Shown one piece after another: positions 755 through 25,677 of a stretch of 64,000 nucleotides of DNA; positions within the stretch are counted from its first letter, which is position 1, and each line of letters starts with the position of its first letter. This DNA comes from Acidobacteriota bacterium (lineage in GTDB: Bacteria > Acidobacteriota > UBA890 > WLXD01). The translations under genes were made by a program, and so were the position numbers. The stretch spans positions 520,538-584,537 of the forward strand of contig CAXWPH010000014.1 of assembly GCA_963666055.2 (NCBI GenBank). The letters are read 5' to 3'. The notes below the pieces were generated by a model. It searched no databases, was not told where the DNA came from, and worked only from the letters and a program-made list of their open reading frames with translations.

Positions 755-1195
755 ATGGCCAAGAAAGGCCAAATCCCGGACCAGCTGCCCGCCGCGTTCG
801 ATTTCGGCCGCGTTCCCGTAAACCGCCACTTCGGGTTCTCGCTGCAGTCGGTCCGGCGCGGCAAGGCAGAGGTGGCCATGCCGCTGAAACGGTCCTTCTG
901 GCAGGAAGAAGGCGTGGTGCACGGCGGCGTCCTTACGACACTCGCCGATACCGCGGCGGTGTATACGATCTCCCCGTTTCTCGACGACGACCAAACGATG
1001 ACGAGCATCGAGTTCAAGATGAACTTCTTGCGCCCGGCTTCGATCGATGCGGGTTCGGTTACCGCCAAGGCCAGCCTCGTACGGCAGGGCAAAACGATTG
1101 CCCTCTGCGAGGTCGACGTCATGCAGACTCGTCGACTCGTCGCCACGGGGTTGTTCACCTACTTGATCTATTCGAAGGACGAAGCCGGCAACTAG
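755..1195 (+). CDS. PaaI family thioesterase (hotdog fold)
   Basis: GVVHGGVLTTLADTA motif; TSIEFKMNFLRPA. Confidence 0.9.
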   Translation: MAKKGQIPDQLPAAFDFGRVPVNRHFGFSLQSVRRGKAEVAMPLKRSFWQEEGVVHGGVLTTLADTAAVYTISPFLDDDQTMTSIEFKMNFLRPASIDAGSVTAKASLVRQGKTIALCEVDVMQTRRLVATGLFTYLIYSKDEAGN

Positions 1196-1199
1196 CCTG

Positions 1200-1862
1200 A
1201 TGGGACCGCGACCGTTCGAGCCGACATTCGAGAGCTTACCGGGGGTGCTTCCGGTTTTTCCGTTGTCCGGTGCCCTCCTACTGCCGCGCTGCCGTCTCCC
1301 CCTCAACATCTTCGAGCCGCGCTACTTGCAGATGACCGAAGATGCGCTGGCCGGCGATCGTTTCATCGGCATGGTGCAGCCGCGCGATCCTGAACCGTTC
1401 GACCATCGCCCCGATATCTTCCCCACAGGCTGTGCGGGGCGCATCAGCTCCTTCAGCAAAACCGACGACGGCCGCATGCTGATTATCCTGACCGGGGTCA
1501 GCCGCTTCGACGTCGAGTCAGAGCTCGGTACCGACTCGCCGTATCGTCAGATAGTGCCGCGTTGGGACAGATATCGCTCGGATCTGATCGAGCAAGCCGA
1601 CGGCGCCATCGATCGAGAGCGGCTCTACGCCTCGCTGCGTGTGTACTTCGAGTCGCGCGATCTCGACACCGATTGGGAGATGCTCGAGGAGGCCACCGAC
1701 GAGCACCTGATCAACTCGTTGGCGATGTCTTGTCCTTTCGGCCCTTCCGAAAGGCAGGCTCTGCTCGAGGCCGGTGATGTGACCGAGCGTGGCCGCCTGA
1801 TGCTCGCGCTCCTCGACATGGCAACCCTCGATCAGGTGGGCGGCGAGCTGCCGCTGCAGTAG
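1200..1862 (+). CDS. LON peptidase substrate-binding (N-terminal) domain protein
   Basis: LPVFPLSGALLLPRCRLPLNIFEPRYLQM motif; ERQALLEA near C-terminus. Confidence 0.9.
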   Translation: MGPRPFEPTFESLPGVLPVFPLSGALLLPRCRLPLNIFEPRYLQMTEDALAGDRFIGMVQPRDPEPFDHRPDIFPTGCAGRISSFSKTDDGRMLIILTGVSRFDVESELGTDSPYRQIVPRWDRYRSDLIEQADGAIDRERLYASLRVYFESRDLDTDWEMLEEATDEHLINSLAMSCPFGPSERQALLEAGDVTERGRLMLALLDMATLDQVGGELPLQ

Positions 1863-1880: not shown

Positions 1881-3401
1881 TTACCGGCGGACGTTTTGGC
1901 GTTTTCGCAAAACCTGCCCCGGCCGCGCCCCGGTTGGCGCGCCGTCACGCCACACCAGCTCACCGCCGACCCAGACGTACTCGATCCCGGTCGACAACAG
2001 CTCGGGCTCCTCGAACGTGCTGCGATCGCCTACCGTTCCGGGGTCGAAAGCCACCAGGTCGGCAATCGCGCCGCGCCGTACCACGCCGCGCTGCTCGAGC
2101 CCAAGGCGCTGCGCCGGCATGGAGGTCATCTTGTGCACGGCTAGCTCCAGCGACATCACCTGCTCGTCGCGGACGTAGCGCCCCAAGACGCGGGGGAAGG
2201 TGCCGGCGCCACGCGGATGGGCGCTGCCGATGCCGCCATCGCTGCACACCATGACCAACGGACTGGCGGCGAACCGGTCGACGTCTTCGAGCTTCATGGT
2301 GTGGCCGATCACGCCGCCGCCGCCGGCCTCCATCATCTCGATGTACATTTCGACCGGGGTCTTGTTCTTAAGCTCGGCGATCTCGTCGAGCCGCAATCCT
2401 TCTACTGACGGGTCGGGTTCGTAGCGCGTTACCTGTATCCGGTTGGCACCGCCCAGCGCCGCGAGCCCTTCGGCAACGGCTTCCGGATCGCTGAAGCGGC
2501 GCGAGCGCACGACGATCGACAGCGACGAGGCCCAGGCCGGGTAGGGATACCAATCGGCCGTGATGTCAAGGCCGCTCTGGCGCGCCGCGGCGAGCTTGTC
2601 GAGCGCCTCCTCCGATCGATCCCAAACGCTGGCGTTGCCCATCTTGATGTGTGAGATCTGCACCGGCAGGCCGCCTTCAAACCCGATCCGAATGACTTCG
2701 TCGATGGCGTCCATGACGGTCTCTTCCTCGTCGCGCATGTGAGACATGTAAAAGCCGCCGAAGCCTGCGGCTACCTCGGCCAGTGCGATCAGCTCTTCGG
2801 TGCTCGAGTAGAAGCCGGGGTCGTATTCCAGGCCGCTCGACAGGCCGAAGGCGCCTTCTTCCATGCCGGTACGGATGAGCTCGGCCATCTGCGTTACTTC
2901 CTGCGCCGTGGCCTGGCGCTTGAAGTCGTCGCCCATTACCTGACGGCGCGCCGTGCCGTGTCCGACCAAGGTGGCCACGTTGACCACCGGCTGCGCCGCC
3001 TCGACCTGGCGCAAGTATTCACCGACCGGCCACTGCGAGCCGCCGTCGGCGCCGCCGACGATGGTGGTGAGCCCCTGGGAGATCAGCGCCTCGGCTTGAG
3101 GTTGCCGAATGATGGCGCGGTCCGAGTGGTTGTGAATGTCGATGAATCCGGGCGCCAGCACGAGGCCGTCGAGGTCGATGACGCTCGGATTGTCACCCGG
3201 TTCCATGCGCCTGCCTTCCTCGACGCTGACGATGCGCCCGTTCTCGATCACCACGTGGCCGGTGAACGGGCGACTGTTCAGGCCGTCGACGATCGTCGCG
3301 TTGATCAGCAGCACACGGCCCTGCTGCGCGGCGCCGGAGCCGGTGATCGTGAGCACCGCGATGAACAGGCCGATGAGAATTCTGACGCTGTTAGGTCGCA
3401 T
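1881..3401 (-). CDS. N-acyl-D-amino-acid deacylase (D-aminoacylase, amidohydrolase), secreted
   Basis: Signal peptide; APGFIDIHNHSD, SHMRDE, SHIK, CSDGG, HPRGAGTFPRVLG, ADLVAFDP. Confidence 0.9.
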   Translation of the reverse strand: MRPNSVRILIGLFIAVLTITGSGAAQQGRVLLINATIVDGLNSRPFTGHVVIENGRIVSVEEGRRMEPGDNPSVIDLDGLVLAPGFIDIHNHSDRAIIRQPQAEALISQGLTTIVGGADGGSQWPVGEYLRQVEAAQPVVNVATLVGHGTARRQVMGDDFKRQATAQEVTQMAELIRTGMEEGAFGLSSGLEYDPGFYSSTEELIALAEVAAGFGGFYMSHMRDEEETVMDAIDEVIRIGFEGGLPVQISHIKMGNASVWDRSEEALDKLAAARQSGLDITADWYPYPAWASSLSIVVRSRRFSDPEAVAEGLAALGGANRIQVTRYEPDPSVEGLRLDEIAELKNKTPVEMYIEMMEAGGGGVIGHTMKLEDVDRFAASPLVMVCSDGGIGSAHPRGAGTFPRVLGRYVRDEQVMSLELAVHKMTSMPAQRLGLEQRGVVRRGAIADLVAFDPGTVGDRSTFEEPELLSTGIEYVWVGGELVWRDGAPTGARPGQVLRKRQNVRR

Positions 3402-3653
3402 CGAGATTGTCTCCCGGGTAATTCGATTGTTGCTCGGGCACGAGTCTGCGTGGCGTTGGAGGCTTGCGCAAGGGGGGCGCGGCGCGCCGCGGAAAGGTCG
3501 TCGGCTACCGCACCGGGCGGCAGCCCGATATCCTTGTAAAAAGCAGCCTCAAGCGCCCGTCCGCCGAGGCCCCACCCTTTATATTCGAGCCGTACTTCAT
3601 ACGTCCCGGGCGATTTGGACACGCGTTTCTCATGATGGCTGGAGTTCTTCATT

Positions 3654-6600
3654 TTGGAGCAGAACCGCTTTGACGTCATCGTCGTAGGCGGTGGCCCTGC
3701 CGGTATCACCGCTGCAACCGCACTCGGCCGCGCCGGGTTCTCGGTACTCGTTTGCGAGGCGGCGGTGTATCCAGGAGCCGAGAACTGGTCCGGCGCCGTT
3801 TATTTCGCCGAGAACATCGAGGCTCCGGAGGCCTTCGGCCGGGCGGCGATCGAAAGCGGTCCCATTGAGCGCCCGCTCGTCGAGCGTGGCTTCTACTCCT
3901 ACAACGGCCACTCGATGTTGGGCGCGGCACTGCGCGACCCGAAGGTGTTCCGCTCCTGCTACACGGTTCTGCGGCCGGTTTTTGACCGCTACCTCGCTGA
4001 GCTTGCCCGCGAGCACGGCGTCGTGTTGCTGTGCGAGACCACCGTCCAGAGCCTGATCCGCCACCAGGGCCGCATCATCGGCGTGCACACCGAGCGCGGT
4101 CCGGCCTATGCCGATGTCGTGTTCCTGGCCGAGGGCGACGCCTCGCACCTGGTGACGCAGGAGGGCTACGAGCGCGTCGGTCCGGACGCCGGCGAGGGGG
4201 GATCGGAGAGCGGCCCGCACTTCCTGCAGGGCGTGAAGGAAGTCGTTTCGCTGTCGCCCGAGATCATCGAGGAGCGTTTCGGGCTGCCGGCCGGGGGCGG
4301 CGGCGCCTACGAAATACTGCTGCGCAACGGCACACGCCATGGCCGCACCGTGCGCCTCAACATGGGTGGCTTCATCTACACCAATCGCGACAGCTTGTCA
4401 CTGGGATTCGTGCTGCCTGTCGATAACCTGGCGGAGAATTTCGACGGCGACCACAACCTGCTGATGGAGTGGTTCAAGGGGCTGCCGGAGATCGAGCGCT
4501 GGATTGACGGCGGCGAAGTAACTTCCTACGGCGCGAAGATCATCCGCGGCGGCGGCTTGCGTGAGATCCCGCGGCTGATCGACGATGGCCTGGCGATCGG
4601 CGGCGCCGCCAGCGGCATCGGCCTCGACTTTCCGTACCCCAACTTCACCGGCCCGGCGACGGCGATGGGCCTCTTGTTCGCCGCCGCTGTGCAGAAGATC
4701 GCCGCCGACAACGGCGGTCCGGGCGGCGGTTCCGGCGACTGTCCGTTCAGCGCCGCGGCGCTCGAGCAGACCTACGTCAGGCCGCTGCAGCGAACCCACT
4801 ACTACCGCAACGTCGAGCGCCTCGCCGACTGGCCCGGGTACATCGAGCGCACCCGTTTCTTCTTCGATCAGCAGGTCGATCTCGCCAATAGCGTGGCGTT
4901 CATCGTGTCGCGTCCCGACATCTCCGCGCCGCGTCGCTGGTGGGAGGCGCTGCGCCTCGAGCGCCGGCTCATCGTGACCAAGCACTTCAAGAGCGTGCTT
5001 GCTGACTTGCGGGAGAATTCCGGGGCCCTCGGCCTCGGGCGGGCCGCCCGGGAGGGTTTTGGTATCGGCACACCCGTGCGCTGGTTGTTCAACACCGTCT
5101 CAGCCTTGTTGCCGAGCCGCCGCACATCCATTGGCGGCGACAAGTCAACGGGTGTTGCGATCGCCACCACGCCCGGTGGCGGCGAGTTTCGTGTGACGTA
5201 TCGGGTCCTGGCGGGCGCCGAGGTGCCCGGTCGTTTGCCGCTCGTTGCCCGGTGGTACTGGAAACGCTTCGGCCCGGCGATGGGCGATGCCTTCGCCGAC
5301 GTCTACACGAACGACGACGAGCCGCTGGATACCAAGTTGCCGCGTGCCTTGGGTCGTTTGATCGACCAGTTTTCCGCGTGGGATGCGGTGCTGTCCGTCG
5401 TCTCCTTGGTGGCGGGAGCCCTGACCTTGCTGGCCCAGTCTTCGATCGAGTGGTTCCAGTACGCCGTGCTGAAGAAGGATCTGTCGGCGTTTCGCGAGCA
5501 GTTCGTCGCCCGGTTGCTCGATGACAATCGCCGCCGTATCCGCCTCGATGACGACGCCGTGGAGATCAGGACGTCCTACGAGCACAAGCTCGGCACGATT
5601 CGCTATCGCGTGGGGCAGCATTCGCACATCAAAGTGCTGTGGCCCGACGATCTTGCGGCGCGTGGTGAGCTGGTCGACTCGCCGCTGTGGAACGTCTGCC
5701 CCGCCAAGGTCTACGAAGTCGATCGGAATCCGCGCGGCATGCCCGGCGTCGTCGTCAACTTCGACAACTGTGTCAAGTGTGAGACTTGCTGGCGCGCCAC
5801 CCCCGACGTGCACTGGAGTCGGGCAACGCAGCAGCGGCTGATCTACGAGACCTATACGCCGACCCATGCCGAGCTGCGCAACTACTTGCTGACGCGGACC
5901 GAGCCGGTGGCACGTTTGCGACGGCTGCCGAGCTACTGGGAGGCGTACTGGTCGGGATCTTCCGACTTGTCGACGAGCTCCGAACAAGCGGCGCTTCTGA
6001 CGGGTGTCGAGGCCGAGCTGCGTCGCTTTAGCGCGGCGCTGGACGGCTACTCACAGGCGCTCGGCGATTCGCCGCCGGCGCTGGAGCAAGGCGAGCGCTA
6101 CTACCTGGAGGAACTGCTGGCCTCGGCGACGCGGCGCTTCGAAGCCGCGCGGGCGCTGTGGCAGACGGAGGCGCTGGAATCGCTGCGCGCAGCAGCCGAC
6201 GGTGCGGCGGCAGTGTGGGCCGACGCCGCCGAAAGGGTGGAGGAATTGGCGCGGCACGCTGCTGCCAAGCGCTATTTCTGGTCGGACGTGGTGGGCAAGC
6301 AACTTCGCGAGCACCATGTCGAGGGACTTCTCGTTTTACTGCGGCGTGAAGCTGCCGGTGTCGATCAACTCGCTCCGCAGCACGGGTTGCCTTCCGAACC
6401 GTGCGAGGCATGGTCGTGGATCGCCGGTTGGCCGGCCGTCGAATGCCGGCCGCTGGCATTCGAAACGCACCGCAAAACGATTCGTGACTGGTGCGACGCG
6501 CACGTCGACTCCGCCGTTCTCAACCGGCTCGAGGAGGGGCTGCCGATCAGCACGGAACTTCGCGACTGGCTTGCCGCGGAGCTCAGGACGGCGGTTGCGT

Positions 6601-9600
6601 CGGGGCGCGATGGCGAAACCTGGTCGGACCCGGCAAACCGCGCCACGCCGGCGACGCCCCGCTACGGGCAGCGAGACGTATTGCTCGAGGAGCTCTCTGC
6701 GTGTGATCCGTCGTTGGCGGCACTGGCCGCCCAGCATCTGCTCGCCTGTGATCTGCTCGACGGTGTTGCGGCAGCCGATCCGACACTGATTGACAACCTG
6801 CGCGCCGGACGGCAGCTGGCGACTGTCGTATCGCAGGGAGCCATTTGCAACGAGCTGATCGTCTCGGGCAAGGCGGCGGAGGGTGTTGCCGCTGTGGCAG
6901 CCGAAGCGGGTGTCGAGCTTCACGGCGTAGCACCGTTGGTTGCTACGGCGTTGGCCGATTGGTTGCTCGTGGTGCGTGACAATCGCGGCTACCTAGTGCC
7001 GATCGATGACCCGGGAGTGAAGCTCGAGGACGTGGGTTGCATCGGGCTGGTCGGCGCCGCCGTGCGGCGGGTGATCTTCGACGGTTGCGTTGTACCGCCG
7101 GAACACCTCTTCGATGTTCCTTCGATCGACGAAAGGTCTGCCTTTACGGCGCCGGCCGTCGGCGAGCCGTTTGCTGATCTTCTGCGAATCGGCGTGCTCG
7201 ATCACCTGGCAATCGTGCGGGGCGCGGGCACCTACTTGACGCAGCGTGCGCGTGAGCATGCCGCCACTCGGGTTCAGTTCCCCGATTCTTTCCAGGACGA
7301 GGCCGGCCGGGACACGATCGCCAAGTTCGGCGCCGTGAAGCGACTCATGGCCGAGATGGAAGCGCAGCGCATCCTGGTGGAGTCGCTCAGTATCATCGAT
7401 CCGGGACCGACCGACGACCCGTGGATTGGTGCCGCGGTGCGCAAGGTCCTCGCCGCCGACGCCTTCGGGCCGAATCGAGGCTCGTTGGGCTACAACTGCG
7501 GCCAGGTGTTCGCTGGCACGGCATTTTCCGAAGACGACTGCATCGCCAAGTACTACCGCGACAGCAGTCCGTTCCGCTTCTTGCTCGCCCACGACGACGC
7601 GCTGCGTGTCGAGATCGGCCGCCGCCGACTTGCAGCAGTACGGCAGGGCAACTCTTTGGTCCCGCTGTCGCCGGGCGAGGCGGCGTGGCTCGGTGCCCTG
7701 GGTGACGAAGCTCCTTTGGCCGCCGCGGTGCCGCGCTGGGAGGCAGCCTGCGCCAAGATCGACGGGTGGGCCGATAGCGTCGCGGCGGCCGACGAACCAA
7801 TGGCCGAGCTCCTGTGCTTTCAAGCCGGCGGCGTGGTTGCGTCGGCGTTGGCTGTCAAGGTCTGTCTGTTGCGCACCGGTTGGCGTCTCGAGTCCGGTTT
7901 GCCTGCCCAGGCGACGCGCGCAGCGACCAACCTTCTCAACGACGAGTTCTGTGCCGCCGTTCCGGGGGTCATCGACGATGCTCAACTTCTTGCTGAAACT
8001 CTCGAAGTCGGTGACGAGACGATCATCCACGGCGATTTCGAGCCCGCCGCCGACATCGCCGACGCGGAGCCCTATCGCGCCGTGCTCGAGACCGATCACG
8101 GTGCCGATTCCGGAGAATGGCTGGTCGGAGGTTTCGACGGCGAGCGACTCCGCTACGTGCCCGAGATCCTGTGGAACGACCCGGAGCTAGGCGCGTTTCG
8201 CGACAGGGTGGAGGCGGAGCAGCGACGGCGCTACGTCGAGCCACGCTTCGACGGGCTGACGTACAACCGGTATCTCGAGAAGCTGCACATCGTGCCGCGC
8301 GATGATCTCGACTACCTGGTTGACGAAGGCTTCCTGCGCATGCCGATCCCGACGTCGCTCGGCGGTGAAGGGGTACTGAAGGCGCTCTACTACATCGTCT
8401 GCGAGATGACGGGTCGCTACGGCGACGCGGCGCTGTCGCTGGCCATAATGGCCAACACGAGTATCGGCACGACGCCCATGCTCCTCGGTCTCAAACAGGA
8501 CCTGCCGCGCGCCCGCGCCGAGCTCGAGAGGGTCAAGGGCGACCCGACGCTGCTCGGCGAGATACACGACGGCCTCGACAAGCTGATCGCCGGCATGGCG
8601 CGTCCCGATCTCGAGGCGCTGCAGCGTGACTACCTGGCGCTGATGGAGCTGGTCAAGGCGCGCATCGTCAAGTCGAGCGTGCTCAAGTACATCGGCGGCG
8701 GCTTCCTGCGCGCTTTCTTCGCCGCCGGACAGGCCGGCGAGCAGCGTGACCTCGACAGCTTTGCCGACAACCTGCGGCAAGCCCGCGAGCGTCTCGACGA
8801 GATCCTCGAAGGTGTCGAGGACCGGCTCATCGAGTACCCGCGCCGCGAGCGGGCGCACGAGCTGTTCTTGAAGATGATCTCGGCCGGCTACATCTCGGCC
8901 TTCGCGCTCACCGAGCCGACTGCAGGATCCGACTCGGGCGGCGTGAAGACATCGGCGCGCCTTGATCGGCGGCGCGTCTATTGCGACGACGACGGCGTCC
9001 TGTACTTCTGGCTCGACGATAAGGCCGAAAGCGAACGGCGCAACCTCCTCGACGCCGACCGGGTTGGGTTCGACTTCGATCGCCACAAGATGCTCTATCG
9101 CTTCTCAGAAGACGCCGAAGCTGCGGAGATCAACCACGACGCCTTCGACTACGACAGCCGGGAGCTGCCGAGCAAGTGGCGCACCTATCGTCACGGTGAT
9201 CGCGACGTTGCGTTCACCGACATCGCGCAGATTCGTGAGGATGAGGCCGGTGACCTCTGGTACGAGTACTGGGAGCTCAACGGCGTCAAGATGTGGATCA
9301 CCAACGGGCGCTTCGCCCATTGCTTCGCGCTGTACGCCACGACCGAGCCGGAGGGCGTTACCGGTTTCATGGTCGACCGCCACGCCGAGGGCATGGTGGT
9401 CGGCGCCGACGAAGAGAAGCTCGGCCAGCGTGCCTCGCCCACCAACGAGTTGTCGCTCACCGGAGTGCGCGTGCCGCGCGAGTGCATCATCGGTTTCCGC
9501 GGCCGCGGCCAGGTCAACGCCCTCGAAACGCTGAATACCGGGCGTACCGGCTTGGCGGTGACGGCGCGCTCCGGTATCCAGGAAATACTCGAGGACGCAG

Positions 9601-12404
9601 TGGCGTTCTTCAGCGAGACGCGACCCAGCGCGTACCCGAAGCAGGGAGCGCCGGCGACCGCGCTGCAGACCTACTGGATGGGACGCCTTACCGAGGAGCT
9701 CATCGGCACCGCCGCCGTTGCCAACGAGCTGATCGGCCTGTTCGACCATCCACTAACCAAGAACGTGCGCATGGAGTCAGCGATCGGCAAGTACTACGGC
9801 AGCGAGGCGCTGCACGACGGCATCGAGTGGATGGAGCGATTGCGTGGGCTCGATGGCTTGACCCACCGCCATCGCATCGAGAAGACGCGCCGTGACGCGC
9901 GGGTGCTCAACATCTACGAAGGCACCAACGAAGTTCAGCGCTACCTGTTGTTGCGCGACCTGGCGCAGCGCGTGCTGCCGGCGTGGAAGGCGGCTCAGAA
10001 AGATAGCGACGGCGCGGAAGTAGACACGGCCGGCGCGCATCCCGATCTGCGCCGGCAGCTAGAGGACGTCAAGCAGCGCCTGATGTCACGGCTGCAGGAC
10101 GCCGACGCGGCGTTCGGCCAACTCATCTGGTCGAACGTCAATCTACAGCCGTGCTTCTTTTGGCTGGCCGAGATTTCCGGCCTCATCAAGGTGATGGACG
10201 CGGTGCTGTATCGCCTCGAATGGCTGGCCGCCCACGACGTGGCCGCCGTGTACCGCGAGCGCCTCGAGCGCGCTTCGCGCCTGGCATTTCGCCGTTGCGG
10301 GGTGCGCATCGACACGCTCGAGCGTTTGTTCACTGCTGCCCACGCCTATCTGCAGGACGGGCGCTACCCGCCGGATGTGCAGCTCGGGTTCCTGGCTCTC
10401 GACGAGGCCGGCGTCATCGCCGAGGCGTGGGGGGTCATGCCCGCGTCGCGTCGCCCGCAGCCGGAACTACCGCCGCTGGCCGACGATGTGCGCATCGTCG
10501 TACTCATCAAGTCGGTGCCCTCGGTTGCCCCGCGGCCGCGGGTCGGCCATGAGTCGTTCGAGGAATCGCTGCACTCAATCGACCAGGTCGACGTCCGATC
10601 GCTGCAGATGGCGCTCGATCTCAAGCGCCGAGATCCGGCGCGGGTAACCGTGGCCGCTTATACGCTGGCTGGGGCCACCGGCAACGAGGCACTCCGCCAG
10701 GCATTGGCGATGGGAGCCGACGAAGCGCAGATTCTGGTGGGTGGCGAGACGGTACCGGTTCAAGACCCCGCCCGGGTGGCGCGCATTGTCGGAGGTTGGC
10801 TGCAGGACAAGCCGGCCGACATCGTGTTCTGCGGCGCCGCCGCTTCGGACACCTCGCAAGGTATCGTCGGCCCCGCACTCGCCGGTGCTCTGGGCCGTGA
10901 GTTTCTCGCCGGCGTTACGGAAGTGCGCTGGAGTCCGGCGCCGGAGCCGCTGTTGCACGTCGGCGCAAGCGGTTGGCAAGGTCACCACATCGATGTGCCG
11001 GTGCCCTGCGTCATCGCGACGGCGGCGCACGCCGAGCACGCCGAGGCCGAATACCGGGTCGGTGGTTTCGTGGCCGCGTTAGCGGCAGCAATCGGCAGGC
11101 TCGAGGCCCGCGATTCGGAAGTCGGTGCTTTGCGTGTTGCCCACGTGCCTCGTGCCATTGCCGGCGGCGGCACTACGGTTCAGATCGCCCGCACGCCGGA
11201 GGATGCCGCCGATGTGTTGTTGCGCACGTCCGGGCTGACCGATGCGGTGTCGAGTTCCGAGGCCGATTCCTACGCCGGCGATCCGGCCGGCTTCGGCCAG
11301 CAGCCGGAAGACCCGTCTCCTGTCTGCCTGTTCGTTTGCGCGCCTGTGGCCGCCACCGACATGGAATCGTCCACGCAGGCGTCCCTGGAATCGGCTGCTC
11401 GTCTGGCGGCCGGCGTCGACTTGCCGCTGGACGTGGTGTTGCCGGTGACGGGTCCCGAGGCTCTCGCTGCGGGAGTGGGGCAGGTGATTGCCGATGTCGG
11501 GCCACGGCGCATCTATGTGCTGGAGCAGGCCGACATCGATCGGCTCGGCTACCGAGGTCACATCGAGTGGCTCGAGGAGTTCTGGGGCATGTACCGTGGC
11601 CAGCCCGAATGGCTGCTCGGGCCGGAATGGGCACGCACGCTGTTCGCCTACTTCGGCGGCCAGGGACCGCCCGCCGTAGAAAGGAGCTGGTCCTGGTTCG
11701 GTGTCGAGCGGGTGAGCAATGGTGGACCGGAGATCCGACTCGGCACATCCATTCTCGACGGTGCGGCTCGCGCCGTCGCGACGGTGCCGAAAACAGGCGG
11801 CTTGCGCATCGTCACGTTTGCCGGCGCCGCCGCAATCGATCTGCCGGACATCGCGAGCTCCGCTGATGCGACGCAAGTGTTTGCCTACCAACCGCGGCTC
11901 GACTACGACCTCGCGTCCGATCCGGCGGCGGCTCTGATGAGTCGCCTGGGCGGCGGAGAGCTGACGCTGCAGGCGGCCGAATACATCGTCGATTTCGGCT
12001 ATGGCGCCGGGGGTCGGGAGGGCCTCGCGGAACTCGCCGAGCCGCTCTTGAGCATCCTGGCAGACGAGCTCGGGCTGCCCAACGCGATGATCGGCGCGAC
12101 GCGCAAGGTCACGCAAGATCTCGAAGTGCTGCCCATGGATCGCCAGATCGGACAGACCGGTGTGCGTGTACACCCCAAGGTGCTGGTAGCGCTGGCAGTT
12201 TCAGGCGCCCCGCAACACGTCGACTGGATCGACGACGAGACTGTCATCCTCGCCTTCAACGTCGACCCCGACGCGCCCCTGATGAGGCTCAACGAGCAGC
12301 GCCCGAATCCGGTGGTTCATCCGATCGTGGGTGACGTTTGGGAAACCATCCCGCGGTTTATGGCCGCCCTGCGCGCGGGCGAGCGGGCGCAAGGATCGCG
12401 ATGA
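3654..12404 (+). CDS. Giant fusion: FixC/ETF-QO FAD domain + 4Fe-4S + two acyl-CoA dehydrogenase domains + ETF-beta + ETF-alpha
   Basis: GGAG RBS before TTG; DVIVVGGGPAG; GGFIYTNRDSLSLG; CPAKVYE...NCVKCETC; RVQF; FALTEPTAGSD; LNGVKMWITNG; RDARVLNIYEGTNEVQR; ALAMGADEA; QIGQTG...SGAPQH. Confidence 0.9.
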   Translation: MEQNRFDVIVVGGGPAGITAATALGRAGFSVLVCEAAVYPGAENWSGAVYFAENIEAPEAFGRAAIESGPIERPLVERGFYSYNGHSMLGAALRDPKVFRSCYTVLRPVFDRYLAELAREHGVVLLCETTVQSLIRHQGRIIGVHTERGPAYADVVFLAEGDASHLVTQEGYERVGPDAGEGGSESGPHFLQGVKEVVSLSPEIIEERFGLPAGGGGAYEILLRNGTRHGRTVRLNMGGFIYTNRDSLSLGFVLPVDNLAENFDGDHNLLMEWFKGLPEIERWIDGGEVTSYGAKIIRGGGLREIPRLIDDGLAIGGAASGIGLDFPYPNFTGPATAMGLLFAAAVQKIAADNGGPGGGSGDCPFSAAALEQTYVRPLQRTHYYRNVERLADWPGYIERTRFFFDQQVDLANSVAFIVSRPDISAPRRWWEALRLERRLIVTKHFKSVLADLRENSGALGLGRAAREGFGIGTPVRWLFNTVSALLPSRRTSIGGDKSTGVAIATTPGGGEFRVTYRVLAGAEVPGRLPLVARWYWKRFGPAMGDAFADVYTNDDEPLDTKLPRALGRLIDQFSAWDAVLSVVSLVAGALTLLAQSSIEWFQYAVLKKDLSAFREQFVARLLDDNRRRIRLDDDAVEIRTSYEHKLGTIRYRVGQHSHIKVLWPDDLAARGELVDSPLWNVCPAKVYEVDRNPRGMPGVVVNFDNCVKCETCWRATPDVHWSRATQQRLIYETYTPTHAELRNYLLTRTEPVARLRRLPSYWEAYWSGSSDLSTSSEQAALLTGVEAELRRFSAALDGYSQALGDSPPALEQGERYYLEELLASATRRFEAARALWQTEALESLRAAADGAAAVWADAAERVEELARHAAAKRYFWSDVVGKQLREHHVEGLLVLLRREAAGVDQLAPQHGLPSEPCEAWSWIAGWPAVECRPLAFETHRKTIRDWCDAHVDSAVLNRLEEGLPISTELRDWLAAELRTAVASGRDGETWSDPANRATPATPRYGQRDVLLEELSACDPSLAALAAQHLLACDLLDGVAAADPTLIDNLRAGRQLATVVSQGAICNELIVSGKAAEGVAAVAAEAGVELHGVAPLVATALADWLLVVRDNRGYLVPIDDPGVKLEDVGCIGLVGAAVRRVIFDGCVVPPEHLFDVPSIDERSAFTAPAVGEPFADLLRIGVLDHLAIVRGAGTYLTQRAREHAATRVQFPDSFQDEAGRDTIAKFGAVKRLMAEMEAQRILVESLSIIDPGPTDDPWIGAAVRKVLAADAFGPNRGSLGYNCGQVFAGTAFSEDDCIAKYYRDSSPFRFLLAHDDALRVEIGRRRLAAVRQGNSLVPLSPGEAAWLGALGDEAPLAAAVPRWEAACAKIDGWADSVAAADEPMAELLCFQAGGVVASALAVKVCLLRTGWRLESGLPAQATRAATNLLNDEFCAAVPGVIDDAQLLAETLEVGDETIIHGDFEPAADIADAEPYRAVLETDHGADSGEWLVGGFDGERLRYVPEILWNDPELGAFRDRVEAEQRRRYVEPRFDGLTYNRYLEKLHIVPRDDLDYLVDEGFLRMPIPTSLGGEGVLKALYYIVCEMTGRYGDAALSLAIMANTSIGTTPMLLGLKQDLPRARAELERVKGDPTLLGEIHDGLDKLIAGMARPDLEALQRDYLALMELVKARIVKSSVLKYIGGGFLRAFFAAGQAGEQRDLDSFADNLRQARERLDEILEGVEDRLIEYPRRERAHELFLKMISAGYISAFALTEPTAGSDSGGVKTSARLDRRRVYCDDDGVLYFWLDDKAESERRNLLDADRVGFDFDRHKMLYRFSEDAEAAEINHDAFDYDSRELPSKWRTYRHGDRDVAFTDIAQIREDEAGDLWYEYWELNGVKMWITNGRFAHCFALYATTEPEGVTGFMVDRHAEGMVVGADEEKLGQRASPTNELSLTGVRVPRECIIGFRGRGQVNALETLNTGRTGLAVTARSGIQEILEDAVAFFSETRPSAYPKQGAPATALQTYWMGRLTEELIGTAAVANELIGLFDHPLTKNVRMESAIGKYYGSEALHDGIEWMERLRGLDGLTHRHRIEKTRRDARVLNIYEGTNEVQRYLLLRDLAQRVLPAWKAAQKDSDGAEVDTAGAHPDLRRQLEDVKQRLMSRLQDADAAFGQLIWSNVNLQPCFFWLAEISGLIKVMDAVLYRLEWLAAHDVAAVYRERLERASRLAFRRCGVRIDTLERLFTAAHAYLQDGRYPPDVQLGFLALDEAGVIAEAWGVMPASRRPQPELPPLADDVRIVVLIKSVPSVAPRPRVGHESFEESLHSIDQVDVRSLQMALDLKRRDPARVTVAAYTLAGATGNEALRQALAMGADEAQILVGGETVPVQDPARVARIVGGWLQDKPADIVFCGAAASDTSQGIVGPALAGALGREFLAGVTEVRWSPAPEPLLHVGASGWQGHHIDVPVPCVIATAAHAEHAEAEYRVGGFVAALAAAIGRLEARDSEVGALRVAHVPRAIAGGGTTVQIARTPEDAADVLLRTSGLTDAVSSSEADSYAGDPAGFGQQPEDPSPVCLFVCAPVAATDMESSTQASLESAARLAAGVDLPLDVVLPVTGPEALAAGVGQVIADVGPRRIYVLEQADIDRLGYRGHIEWLEEFWGMYRGQPEWLLGPEWARTLFAYFGGQGPPAVERSWSWFGVERVSNGGPEIRLGTSILDGAARAVATVPKTGGLRIVTFAGAAAIDLPDIASSADATQVFAYQPRLDYDLASDPAAALMSRLGGGELTLQAAEYIVDFGYGAGGREGLAELAEPLLSILADELGLPNAMIGATRKVTQDLEVLPMDRQIGQTGVRVHPKVLVALAVSGAPQHVDWIDDETVILAFNVDPDAPLMRLNEQRPNPVVHPIVGDVWETIPRFMAALRAGERAQGSR

Positions 12405-12502
12405 CTGCGTTGCGCTTGATTCGAGTGCTCGACGTACATTAAGTACGCCTGCGCGCTCGAATCTGCGCGCGCCTTGTCCTCGCGAGCCTTGCGCCCGCTC
12501 GC
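12379..12502 (+). repeat. Structured palindromic repeat, family A copy 1 (overlaps the stop codon of the giant gene)
   Basis: Outer inverted repeat GCGAGCGGGCGCAAGG...CCTTGCGCCCGCTCGC; core GCGTTGCGC...CGACGTAC-attaa-GTACGCCTG...GCGCGCCTTG. Confidence 0.8.
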
Positions 12503-12554
12503 CTCTACCGGCGCTTGGCTACGACCCGGCCGTGCCTGCTCGCTTCACGACCCT

Positions 12555-21425: not shown

Positions 21426-24048
21426 ATGCGCCTTCGTGTGGCGCCGACAATCGATTTTCGCCATCATCTGGGCGTGCGCACCCCGAAAGTACCATTCGAT
21501 ACCGGCACCCCGCGTCTCGAGCTGTGCCTGCTGTACGTCTTGTTCGTCGCCGCCGGGCTATTGCAGGCTGAAGGCGCCGCGGTGCAGGCCCGCCCGGGCG
21601 AGGTGGCCGGTCGCGTCGTGGACTTCGACGGCACACCGCTTCCCGGGCTCGCCGTGCGGCTGGAAGGGCCGTTTCCACAAAACACCACACGCGAGCTGGT
21701 TGCCGACGCCAACGCCCGCTTCGTGTTTCGCGACACGCCGCCGGGACGCTACCGACTGGCGATCGAGCTCACCGGTGTGGACGCCGGCAGCGATCTCGAC
21801 GTCATCGTGACGGCAGGAACGCGCGTCGAAACAACGCTGGTGCTGAACCTGCGGGGTACAGATATCAACGTCATCGTGCAGGCTCGGGCGCTGCGCGTTG
21901 AAGACGCCGATCTCGTCGACCCGGAGTCGACCGCAGGGCGGCGCATCGTACCAGGAACGACGATCAACTGGCTGCCCTTGCCGGCGGAGCAGGCCCTAGA
22001 GGTGCTCCCGCTGATGCCCACGGTGATCCGCTCCGACAGCGGCCAACTAGCGATCGACGGCACGTTGGTGACCGATTCGGTGATGCTCTTCAACGGCATC
22101 GACCTGATGGATCCCTACTCGGGTGAGTACCGGGTTCGCCTGCCGCTCGAGTCCATCGATCGCGTCGACCTGTATACCGGTGTGGTGCCAGCACAATACG
22201 GCGACACGGTGGGCGCCGTCGTCGATATCAGTACGTTGCCCGGCGCCGAGAGCTGGGGGTGGGGTGTTGCCAGTTTCGTTCCGAGGCCGCGGTTTCGGGA
22301 CGGCACAATACAGGGCATCGGCAATGCATCTCCCCGCCTGTGGGTTTCCGGTCCGATCAAGCCGGGCGAAACGTACATGGCCATTTCCGCCGAGTATCAC
22401 TTCGATCGCATCGACGTGCAGGACGTGCCGGGCGATCCGGCGCAAGATCACGTCAAGGTAGAGGGGTGGGACGCCACGGCGCAGGTGGATTGGCGACCCA
22501 ACGACCAGCACAGCTTCATGGTTTCGGGCCTGGCGTTTCCGCAGCACGACAAGTTCGTCGGCCTCGACGGGCTTACACCACCGGAGGCGACCTTCAACGT
22601 CGAGCGCGATGCCGAGGCGCTGTTCGCCAAGCACACGTATCGAGGCGACCGTAACCGGTCGCTCGAGACCATGATCCAGTACAACCGCATCGGCATTCGC
22701 TCGGAGCCGCAGGGAGCGGCGCCGTACGAAGTCCTGACCGACGGGTTCGGCGGCAACCAGTTTCACCGTGAGGACCGGCAGACGACCCACACACAGATTC
22801 AGGTGAACTACTCGCGACGGCCGGAGCGGTGGCGGCGAAAGGTCGCACCTGGTCCAGATCGGCGCCGACTTTCATCGTCTCCACCTGAGCGGCCAGTTTG
22901 CCAACGATACGATTCTGGTGCGGGGCGTGGATGGCCGACTGCTGCAGAGGGTCGATTTCACCGACTCGCCTGACCTCTCGTACAGCAAGTACGAGTGGGC
23001 CGGTTACTTCCAAGACCGCTGGACCCACAGCGACAGATTCTGGTGGGATATCGGAGTGCGTCTTTCGGGGGACTCGTTTACCGATACGGTGGTTCGCATC
23101 GGGCCGCGGATCGGCGTCGCATGGGATCCCGTGGGCGACCGGCGCACGCTGCTGAAGGCCGGCGCCGGGATCATGTATCGACGGGTTTACCTGGGGAAGA
23201 TTCTCTGGGAAGATCTGCCGGTTCGCCTGGAGACGACGTTCGCAGAAGACGGCAGCGCAACCTTGGTTCCCCTCGTAGCTGCGCGCGACGAGAAGCTCTC
23301 GGCGCCCCGCACGCTCTTGTTCACCGGCGACTTCAGCCATCGGCTCGAGTCGGGCTGGCTTTTTCGCACCAAGCTCTCGCATCGCAGTGGCAGCGACAAC
23401 ATCATTGCCGAACGCGTCGAGCCACCCGGTGTCGCCCTCGAAGACGACGATCCATTGCCGTTCTTCACGCAGAATCCGACCATCGAGGCGGGGTCGCTGT
23501 TGCTGTCGAATGCCGGCGAGTCGACCTCCTGGAGCCTCGAGGTTACCGCCGCCAAGCGGATTACCTCCGGCGGCGAGTTGGTGGTGTCGTACGTACGTTC
23601 CTCCAGCTTCGGCGACCTGAACGACTTCACGATCATGTCCGCCGCTGCCCCGGACCCCATCATTCGGGAAAACCGCCGGGCGCAGCGCGCCCTCGACGTA
23701 CCCCACCGGATCCTGGCGTGGGCGACGATCAACCTGCCGGCCGACGTGCAGCTCGCCCCGGTGTTCGAGTGGAGGTCGGGCTTCCCCTATAGCGCGTTGG
23801 CTGAAGACCAGTCGTACTTCGGCGAGCCCAACACCGAGCGCCTCCCGAACTTCTTCTCGCTCGACCTGCAGGCGACGAAGGGCTTCACGGTGGGCGGTGT
23901 CTACGTGATTGCCGGCGTGAAGTTGACGAACCTCACGAGCCACGACAATCCCCGTCAGGTGATAGCCAACCTCGCCGATCCGGCCTTCGGGGAGTTCCGC
24001 AACAGCGTCCCCTTCAGGCTGCGTACAAAGTTCTCATTCAATTTCTGA
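21426..24048 (+). CDS. TonB-dependent receptor with carboxypeptidase-regulatory-like N-terminal domain (one frameshift near 22830)
   Basis: GRVVDFDGTPLPG...PPGRYRL, plug motif AQYGDTVGAVVDIST, GYFQDRW, terminal KFSFNF; ORFs 21426-22973 and 22918-24048 are colinear halves; start uncertain. Confidence 0.8.
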
Positions 24049-24049
24049 C

Positions 24050-24170
24050 CGCGAGCGCTAGGGGGCGCGATGACTGCGTTGCGCTTGCTCGGCCTCCTTC
24101 GCAGTACGCCAAGTACTACTCAGTCGGCCTCGCGGCGCGCGCCTTGTCCTCGCGCCCCCTAGCGCTCGCG
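24050..24170 (+). repeat. Structured palindromic repeat, family A copy 2 (between convergent genes)
   Basis: CGCGAGCGCTAGGGGGCGCG...CGCGCCCCCTAGCGCTCGCG; core GCGTTGCGC...CAGTAC-gccaa-GTACT...GCGCGCCTTG. Confidence 0.85.
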
Positions 24171-24189: not shown

Positions 24190-25677
24190 TTATCCGGCGG
24201 TCTGACTGGTGGCCGGCTGAGCGGCCTGGACCTTGCCCAGATAGCGGAGCATCCGGTCGAGGCGCGCGTCGGTGCTATTACGCCCCATGAGCTCGAGGAC
24301 CTCGAAGATACCCGGCGAGGATGCCTTGCCGATTACCGCGACGCGGCTGGCATGAATCAAGTCGGCGGCATCCATCTCAAGGCTTTCCGCCAGTTGCCGG
24401 AGCGTCGCCTCGAGCTCTTCCTGGCTCCACGGGTCGACCTTGCCGAAAGCCTCGCGAACAGCCTGCAGCGGGCCAAGTAGCTCTTTGCCCTTGATGTGGG
24501 CGTTGACGGCATCCGGCAGATACGGGAACGCCTCGGTGAGAAACGGCGCGATGTTGTCGGCTAGCTCGTTGATCGTGCGCGAGCGCGACTGCCACAGGTC
24601 GATGAGCGCGAAGATGTAGTCGCGCCGCTCCATATCGAGCTCTTCCCGCCAGCAGCCGCGGTTGCTCAGGGCGTCGCGGACGGAGTTGAGCAATTCGCCA
24701 GCCGGGACCTCGGAGATGTACTTGCCGTTGAGCCAGGCGAGCTTCTCGGGGTCGAAAACGGCGTTCGACGAGTTGACACGCTCGAGGCTGAACTCCTTGG
24801 TCAGCTCGTGGAGCGTGAAGACCTCGCGGTCGTCTCCCGGCGACCAGCCCAGCAGCGCCAGGTAGTTGACAACGGCGCCGGGCAGGTAGCCCTTGTCGCG
24901 GAAATGTGTCACCGACGTCGCACCGTGCCGCTTCGACAGGCGCTTCTTGTCCTCGCCGAGGATGAGCGGCGGGTGCGCGAAAACCGGCAGCTTGGCGTCG
25001 AGAGCCTCATACACAAGGATTTGCTTCGGCGTGTTGGGCAGGTGATCAGCGCCACGGATGACGTGGGTGATGCCCATCTCGATGTCGTCGACCACGTTCG
25101 ACAGGTGATACGTCGGCTTCTCGTCGGAGCGCAACAACACGAAGTCCTCGAGGTTGTCGCGCTCGAAGCTGACGTCACCGTGAACCTGGTCTTTGACGAC
25201 CGTCGTGCCCTCCGTAGGCACCTTGAAACGAACCACTTTGGGGGCATCGGCGTCGAGTTTGGCTTGAACCTCATCGGCCGACAGGTCGCGGCACGTGCCG
25301 TCGTAGCGCCAGCCGTCGCCCTGCTCCTGAGCCTCTTGGCGCTTGGCTTCGATTTCCTCGGCGCTGCAGAAGCAGTAGTAAGCGTGGCCGGAGTTCATCA
25401 GCAGCGACACGTAGTCGCGGTACAGATCGAGGCGTTCGGACTGGTATAGCGGGCCTTCGTCCCAGTCGAGCCCCAGCCAGCTCAGCGCGTCGAAGATTCC
25501 CTGCACCGACTCTTCGCTGGAGCGACCTTTGTCGGTGTCCTCGATCCGCAGGATGAACGCGCCTCCGTGATGCTTCGCATACAACCAGTTGAACAGCGCC
25601 GTGCGGGCGCCGCCGACGTGAAGCTCGCCGGTGGGGCTGGGCGCGAAGCGTACGCGCACCTCAGAAGAATCGGCCAT
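24190..25677 (-). CDS. gltX: Glutamate--tRNA ligase
   Basis: VRVRFAPSPTGELHVGGARTALFNWL, RIEDTD, THVIRGADH, RLSKRHG. Confidence 0.97.
   Translation of the reverse strand: MADSSEVRVRFAPSPTGELHVGGARTALFNWLYAKHHGGAFILRIEDTDKGRSSEESVQGIFDALSWLGLDWDEGPLYQSERLDLYRDYVSLLMNSGHAYYCFCSAEEIEAKRQEAQEQGDGWRYDGTCRDLSADEVQAKLDADAPKVVRFKVPTEGTTVVKDQVHGDVSFERDNLEDFVLLRSDEKPTYHLSNVVDDIEMGITHVIRGADHLPNTPKQILVYEALDAKLPVFAHPPLILGEDKKRLSKRHGATSVTHFRDKGYLPGAVVNYLALLGWSPGDDREVFTLHELTKEFSLERVNSSNAVFDPEKLAWLNGKYISEVPAGELLNSVRDALSNRGCWREELDMERRDYIFALIDLWQSRSRTINELADNIAPFLTEAFPYLPDAVNAHIKGKELLGPLQAVREAFGKVDPWSQEELEATLRQLAESLEMDAADLIHASRVAVIGKASSPGIFEVLELMGRNSTDARLDRMLRYLGKVQAAQPATSQTAG

Follow-up and report, generated by a model that had tools for sequence, protein, structure and literature searches.

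The window, a stretch of 64,000 nucleotides from an Acidobacteriota bacterium, carries an open reading frame (3654-12404) for a single polypeptide of 2916 aa (318 kDa). A FixC-type FAD domain, a FixX-like domain with one 4Fe-4S site, two acyl-CoA dehydrogenase domains (ACAD1 and ACAD2), EtfB and EtfA follow each other in this order from the N- to the C-terminus. Judged from sequence, this is apparently a widespread and undescribed architecture of a known electron chain. We consider it fairly probable that the one chain functions in fatty-acid beta-oxidation as an acyl-CoA:quinone oxidoreductase that does not bifurcate electrons and is probably attached to the membrane, and on the best reading it would replace FadE, ETF and ETF-QO. 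A self-contained acyl-CoA:quinone oxidoreductase had been proposed in a preliminary description of this DNA, and the proposal is supported by the conservation of the cofactor motifs, the fusion of the homologues and the recurrence of beta-oxidation genes alongside.

The fused gene and the contig that carries it

The frame begins with TTG, the start residue is identical in close homologues, and a ribosome-binding-like sequence lies upstream (Table 1). As the preliminary description had stated, the frame is open for all codons, with neither stop nor frameshift. Contigs of a sequencing run (X3), which belongs to a different study from the two best-matching runs, tile the fusion without gaps (3000-4475, 4450-9304, 9278-9794 and 9772-12426). 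The whole gene is in no single contig; the contig breaks fall inside domains, so that each domain junction lies within one contig. Two proteins from other assemblies, P0207 and P0208, are nearly identical (99.9% and 99.8%, respectively). In a rough count of the window copy against the copy of genome G003, dN/dS was 0.11-0.46 in 13 of 13 segments, linkers included, whereas distant comparisons (L093, L082) were saturated and hence discarded. The ORF is real and intact. That it represents an assembly artefact, an operon read-through or a polyprotein cut into the usual subunits is extremely unlikely: an artefact would be favoured by the probable position of the window on a chimeric contig end, but hundreds of independent fused homologues, the gap-free contigs from another study over all junctions, the purifying selection on the linkers and the RefSeq records of Acidiferrobacter speak against it.

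Pfam predicted FAD_oxidored (residues 7-148), Acyl-CoA_dh_N/M/1 (1540-2102), ETF (2307-2426) and ETF_alpha (2772-2856), the last two matching the earlier assignment of ETF-beta followed by ETF-alpha to the C-terminal end. Fer4_ETF_QO at residues 672-714 reached 23.7 bits, marginally below the cut-off of 24, and among the 25 of 74 NCBIfam families listed no model reached its cut-off. The earlier list of six modules was right in its domains and their order; they do not appear to be six equal catalysts, ACAD1 being likely a non-catalytic half, and two helical parts (residues 441-640 and 741-900) were missing from the list. Both ACAD domains are present as well, with limits that had to be extended: each carries a VLCAD-type C-terminal extension, so that ACAD1 ends only at about 8150 and ACAD2 at about 10460.

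Table 1. Features of the fused gene and its upstream neighbours (res, residues of the fusion protein)
Feature	Position in window	Strand	Basis or remark
PaaI/4HBT-type thioesterase and stand-alone Lon substrate-binding domain gene	755-1862	+	Pfam
Amidohydro_3 gene, divergent, upstream of fusion	1881-3401	-	same in C15 copy and L003
GGAG, ribosome-binding-like	3641..3644	+	9 nt ahead of TTG start; sequence
Whole fused gene, 2916 aa	3654..12404	+	open frame; dN/dS vs G003 copy
FixC/EtfC-type FAD quinone oxidoreductase domain, res 1-440	3654..4973	+	profile and fold
Helical insert, res 441-640	4974..5573	+	model, hydropathy, hydrophobic moments
FixX-like domain, single 4Fe-4S site C682, C706, C709, C712	5574..5858	+	alignment to 7koe_D, 2gmh
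Four-helix linker domain, res 741-900, poorly conserved	5874..6353	+	model, conservation
ACAD1, VLCAD-type fold	6459..8153	+	profile search, fold comparison, motif alignment
ACAD2	8154..10463	+	Pfam, motif alignment, fold, PDB search
ACAD2 insertion 1, helical bundle, res 1616-1735	8499-8858		confidently modelled, family-specific
ACAD2 insertion 2, beta-rich, res 1775-1870	8976-9263		confidently modelled, family-specific
EtfB-like domain	10476..11183	+	alignment to 4kpu_B, conservation
EtfA: divergent domain I (res 2550-2750), conserved FAD domain II (res 2765-2910)	11301..12383	+	

The host genome (G000) carries a second copy of the fusion on contig C15, which is 94% identical to the copy of the same-genus genome G019. 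The window copy and the window GluRS gene (24190-25677) are 93-94% identical to those of G003, a genome of another family; over its first 20 kb the window is collinear with G003 at 86-99% identity. A second GluRS of G000 is located on C15, and several genes of window 1-25677 have 50-70% identical second copies there. The contig of the window (C14) is 89-97% like G019 at 40, 200 and 350 kb; at 440 and 490 kb only scattered G019 matches were found, and none to G003 at the threshold used. The G003-like segment did not stand out from the rest in tetranucleotide profiles. The G003-like end of C14 as opposed to its G019-like remainder indicates that positions from about 507000 to 584537 are probably a chimeric contig end, or else a large recent transfer. 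On the identities of the two copies to G019 and G003, two paralogues in one genome were rejected as the likely explanation. This doubt about provenance leaves the fusion unaffected; the remaining genes of G000, however, need not form the genomic background of the window copy.

Two further observations concern this part of the contig. A 28-nt inverted repeat at window 12378-12503 (93% complementary, 70 nt spacing) overlaps the stop codon of the fusion; a related copy was located near window 24070-24170, and other contigs of the read runs contain related pieces. A TonB-dependent receptor-like gene appears as two overlapping ORFs (window 21426-24048) and is possibly frameshifted.

Cofactor sites along the chain

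Conservation was counted in 162 aligned sequences of 2200 aa or more (165 were aligned and three shorter ones excluded). Pfam, profile and fold matches agree on the FixC/ETF-QO-type FAD domain that the preliminary description had placed at the N-terminus. This domain is nearer FixC (7koe_C, E 2.6e-59) than ETF-QO (2gmh, E 2.4e-21); the FixC fold with its FAD motif is present, and the model superimposes on the FixC of 7koe with Z 35.8 (rmsd 2.1, 425 aligned), whereas the NCBIfam FixC score of 122 is far under the cut-off of 610. The following helical insert contains basic, Trp-rich amphipathic helices and one hydrophobic helix (residues 575-598), and is a likely membrane anchor. Pfam ETFQO_UQ-bd gave no match on the fusion protein, the amphipathic helices being the sole membrane feature seen.

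The cysteine motif CPAKVYE...CVKCETC lies at 5697-5789, as claimed, and the four cysteines of the cluster site are conserved in 162 of 162 sequences. The FeS domain aligns with FixX from the start of FixX; in the alignment to 7koe_D it has only these four Cys and those for the second FixX cluster are absent. A model of residues 2-935 was predicted with pTM 0.90. Residues 1-732, FeS domain included, superimpose on ETF-QO 2gmh with Z 30.8 (rmsd 3.1, 475 aligned), and the modelled FeS domain sits at the ETF-QO cluster position. The FAD domain and one 4Fe-4S cluster site are thus combined in one chain, as in ETF-QO. In T. maritima EtfX both clusters are required for stability (PMC10734219), so that a one-cluster FixX is without tested precedent in that complex.

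ACAD1 was undetected by Pfam. With a family profile its best match was mouse VLCAD (E 6e-13), and the first 535 residues of the ACAD model superimpose on whole VLCAD 3b96 with Z 23.5 (rmsd 3.5, 462 aligned). The residues R1206, Q1208, F1209, Q1284 and G1288, which form an RxQF plus QxxxG FAD arm, are each conserved in 162 of 162 sequences; in these sequences ACAD1 has neither an ALTEP motif nor a conserved Glu in either of the two known base positions, the J/K loop and helix G. ACAD2 shows the complementary set. It has the three-domain ACAD fold (Z 26.2 against 1jqi, rmsd 2.3, 371 aligned) and retains the own-subunit FAD motifs and the catalytic Glu in the J/K loop, with the motifs ALTEPxAGSD (1751), KMWITN (1879) and YE2089G. 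Y2088, E2089 and G2090 are each present in 162 of 162 sequences, and LxEP, AGSD, KxW and N are invariant or nearly so. ACAD2 of the window protein has lost its own RxQFG arm, as have about 130 of the 162 sequences by deletion, and the Q of the ACAD2 QxxGG is replaced by Glu. Among 185 motif-complete proteins, 183 have one RxQF, 180 one ALTEP and 176 one YEG-type motif. Much of the N-terminal and middle parts of ACAD1 is gone in the shorter versions of Verrucomicrobiota and Gammaproteobacteria, which keep its C-terminal helical bundle. The two ACAD2 insertions (Table 1) are candidates, on the model, for contacts with ETF or the membrane part.

ACAD flavins are located at the dimer interface. 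In the heteromeric ChsE4-ChsE5 and ChsE1-ChsE2, isoalloxazine and catalytic Glu belong to one subunit and the contact to the ADP of FAD to the other (PMC11153573). The same combination of a Glu/isoalloxazine half and a FAD-ADP-arm half was found in the fusion. Since ACAD1 has only the FAD arm of a partner subunit and ACAD2 the Glu and its own FAD motifs, both likely form one active site per chain, in which ACAD1 would have a structural role and complete the FAD site that ACAD2 carries. The predicted model of residues 936-2135 (1200 residues) has pTM 0.87, a value that does not prove interface geometry.

In the ETF part, EtfB and EtfA are fused and do not form the free heterodimer of canonical ETF. 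The motifs R2817, QIGQTG, SGAPQH and NxD of EtfA domain II are conserved in 160-161 of 162 sequences; 30 columns of ETF domain II are conserved at 95% or more, compared with 0 in EtfB and in EtfA domain I. Bifurcating ETFs have an invariant Gly at the position of A. fermentans beta-123, and R140 of T. maritima EtfABCX is required for bifurcation (PMC12630350 and PMC10734219, respectively). In the alignment to 4kpu_B the Gly123 position is occupied by Thr2400 (Gly in 18 of 162 sequences), and Thr2698 is found at the R140-equivalent in a loosely aligned region (Arg in 16 of 162). Thr at both positions suggests that the fused ETF is likely a one-flavin, non-bifurcating shuttle. It is very improbable that the fusion bifurcates or confurcates electrons in the manner of EtfABCX or Bcd-EtfAB, by means of a second FAD and an NADH site within its EtfB part. 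Such a mechanism would fit the FixC and FixX ancestry, the sequences with Gly and the top EtfB profile score of the bifurcating 4kpu_B, which is only 3 bits over that of the canonical 1o94_C; however, it disagrees with the two Thr of the window copy, with the absence of the second FixX cluster and with the partial deletion, in about 57 of 162 sequences, of the loop where canonical ETF binds AMP in the beta subunit; the window copy has this loop.

Carriers, gene neighbours and the proposed electron path

A protein search gave 432 matches among 7980 candidates scored, and nearly all of the best 120 of 432 share the module order. A second search with an Acidiferrobacter query gave 396 matches among 7983 scored, of which the best 120 were listed. 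The matches listed comprise 204 distinct proteins: 185 with all seven strict motifs (2266-3036 aa) and 19 that are partial or deviate in one or two motifs. A GTDB scan kept 80 of at least 580 loci, 70 of which belong to the family; the other ten encode short proteins of ACAD and EtfA domain II. The family loci consist of 43 with a single ORF from FixC to EtfA (one of them losing part of FixC at the contig start), 20 cut by contig ends, six with frame changes and one that is split. Homologues are fused, and the possibility, raised in the preliminary description, that they are always separate genes is contradicted.

Carriers belong to Acidobacteriota, Planctomycetota, Verrucomicrobiota, Gemmatimonadota, Nitrospirota, Pseudomonadota and, in one case, Lentisphaerota, that is at least seven phyla. 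In the host class, 23 of 26 genomes carry the fusion, including 12 of the 12 of good quality. RefSeq records named Acidiferrobacter thiooxydans hold a compact version of 2,294 aa with all motifs (WP_065971523.1), which makes the reading testable, and records named Acidiferrobacter sp. SPIII_3 one of 2288 aa, also with all motifs. In a tree of 52 sequences, partial loci excluded, four of the five phyla with several sequences can each be set apart by a single branch, and three changes are required for Planctomycetota; this fits an old gene with few transfers, the tree being compatible with such a history and no proof of it. The split locus lies on a Gemmatimonadota chromosome (G026), where two ORFs of 1379 aa (L095:1304-5443) and 1534 aa (L096:13472-18076) are about 26 kb apart and the split point falls in the ACAD1 C-terminal extension. 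A search for shorter matches gave 79 among 7991 scored; 58 family-like ones were mapped, and their starts are scattered like those of fragments. About eight of the 58 begin near the ACAD1/ACAD2 border, so that a rare two-gene form of the fusion may exist. Another beta-oxidation fusion was seen in P0360 (1361 aa), which combines Pfam domains of ACAD, enoyl-CoA hydratase and 3-hydroxyacyl-CoA dehydrogenase.

Gene neighbours were compared in 72 sequences, the 70 loci plus the two copies of the host genome. A FadB-type gene is a neighbour in 10, an AMP-binding ligase in 9 and a thiolase in 6. The fad-type neighbours were found in Gammaproteobacteria, Gemmataceae, one Nitrospirae locus and one unclassified locus; kin are not independent, and the fad neighbourhood therefore corresponds to about four events. 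In the loci with fadB, fadA or fadD neighbours, domain profiles detected no separate ACAD, ETF or FixC gene. A fadB neighbour is absent in 62 of 72 loci, the window included, and many of these have short flanks. In the window itself, the neighbours of the fusion are an amidohydrolase gene, a gene for a Lon N-domain protein and a thioesterase gene. The host genome has a fadD-fadA-fadB operon on C3, common to G000 and G003, and no ACAD gene was found in 18 kb there.

G000 also carries two free EtfAB pairs and a free FixC-FixX, so that internal channelling is not demanded by gene content. One etfB-etfA pair lies in a cluster on C13 (L085:4385-12590); the fixC-fixX pair is located on C12 (L084:7510-9133), and etf genes were not detected beside it. 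In the etf cluster of L085 there is also an apparently frameshifted sarcosine/dimethylglycine dehydrogenase-like gene, together with genes for a trimethylamine methyltransferase and an FeS-CCG oxidoreductase. The modules might be merely co-localised without a closed channel, the transfer proceeding between chains or via free ETF, or the tethered ETF serving outside dehydrogenases. These free ETFs and FixCX, the two distant ORFs of G026 and the divergent ETF base are in line with mere co-localisation; it is nevertheless improbable, as few parts of the protein are conserved as well as ETF domain II, which has family-specific motifs, and once the loci lost to contig ends are set aside, the gene is in one frame in 43 of the remaining 50.

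On the preferred reading of an acyl-CoA:quinone oxidoreductase, ACAD1 and ACAD2 would pack as a pseudo-dimer with a single FAD. ACAD2 would bind this FAD, and ACAD1 would complete the site with its RxQF and QxxxG residues. E2089 would abstract the alpha-proton and acyl-CoA would reduce the ACAD2 FAD. The flavin of the tethered ETF domain II would then accept single electrons and swing to the 4Fe-4S cluster, from which they would pass to the FixC flavin and to quinone, menaquinone in the host class (PF02621, a family of the futalosine menaquinone pathway, is present in 26 of its 26 genomes). Three FAD and one 4Fe-4S cluster are predicted per chain, and the substrate is likely a medium- to long-chain acyl-CoA. 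The published potentials are -74 mV for menaquinone (PMC10734219) and -10 mV for butyryl-CoA (PMC12288474); by these values the oxidation of butyryl-CoA by menaquinone is unfavourable under standard conditions and would have to be pulled. We give an even chance to a widespread, undescribed megaenzyme of 250-330 kDa that would be the dedicated FadE step of several phyla; its pseudo-dimeric ACAD, its tethered ETF arm, stripped of cofactors, and its FixCX with one cluster would together make up a closed wire that leads from acyl-CoA into the quinone pool. If so, tethering would help to drive the uphill step from acyl-CoA to menaquinone, and both ETF docking states could be caught in one particle.

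Electrons might also flow in reverse in vivo, the chain being a quinol:enoyl-CoA reductase with enoyl-CoA as electron sink. FixABCX has been proposed to work in this way with CaiA-type reductases, and the FAD domain is nearer FixC than ETF-QO. Nitrospirota and Acidiferrobacter are known for a lithoautotrophic lifestyle, and some carriers belong to such groups. The standard potentials likewise favour transfer from menaquinol to enoyl-CoA. Reverse flow is unlikely, however, given that the genes repeatedly seen beside the fusion, fadD, fadA and fadB, are degradative and that these fad operons are otherwise without a detected dehydrogenase.

Comparison with known systems

The predicted cofactor path and reaction are those of the canonical ACAD, ETF and ETF-QO chain of mitochondria and proteobacteria (VLCAD 3b96, ETF 1efv, ETF-QO 2gmh). 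The fusion shares with it the VLCAD-type ACAD fold, the single 4Fe-4S cluster placed as in ETF-QO and the non-bifurcating ETF signature. The canonical parts are separate and its ETF serves many dehydrogenases, whereas the fusion is one chain with one dedicated ACAD site and a FixC-like flavin domain. A fusion of two ACADs is known in FadE34. The alpha2beta2 ChsE4-ChsE5 and ChsE1-ChsE2 of Mycobacterium divide FAD site and Glu in the same way as ACAD1 and ACAD2; they are encoded by separate, adjacent genes, act on steroid-CoA substrates and have no fused ETF or quinone reductase. The fusion, in contrast, has VLCAD-type halves in one ORF, VLCAD as its best structural match and its Glu placed as in MCAD.

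Fix/EtfABCX of Thermotoga maritima (7koe), which has menaquinone as acceptor, is the best sequence and fold match for the FAD and FeS domains. According to PMC10734219, this complex has four subunits, three FAD and two clusters, oxidises NADH and bifurcates; in the fusion the ACAD is the donor, one cluster is left and the bifurcation residues are missing. A partial fusion of ACAD and the ETF FAD domain exists in the butyryl-CoA reductase (BCR) of Fusobacterium BOOR, which consists of Bcd, the EtfA C-terminal domain and rubredoxin, has neither EtfB nor FixCX and transfers electrons to a flavodiiron protein and O2 (PMC12288474). The ten short loci of the GTDB scan are of this BCR type (634-716 aa). 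SaETF, a monomeric EtfB-EtfA fusion, has the same order of EtfB and EtfA in one chain; it comprises the two ETF subunits only and is bifurcating (PMC12042025).

Among the 60 of 104 PDB matches listed, only single-domain relatives were found and no fused or full-length one. No description of the full fusion was found in a search of the open-access literature, and the passages checked in PMC5736913 and PMC3578206 contain no such fusion. Database records of the fusion bear single-domain names, e.g., 'FAD-binding protein' or 'Protein FixC', and under these names the likely fadE step goes unrecognised in genomes of Acidobacteriota, Planctomycetota, Verrucomicrobiota, Gemmatimonadota, Nitrospirota and Acidiferrobacterales. 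The earlier suggestion of a new system holds for the architecture, which is apparently undescribed, and not for the electron chain, which is known and involves no new chemistry. The electrons of fatty-acid oxidation are taught to be carried by freely diffusing ETF between separate proteins. The fusion would be a cryo-EM target for the step in which ETF docks to the 4Fe-4S cluster and, as it joins what are normally four to six separate proteins, it would offer a direct test of channelling from a natural single chain.
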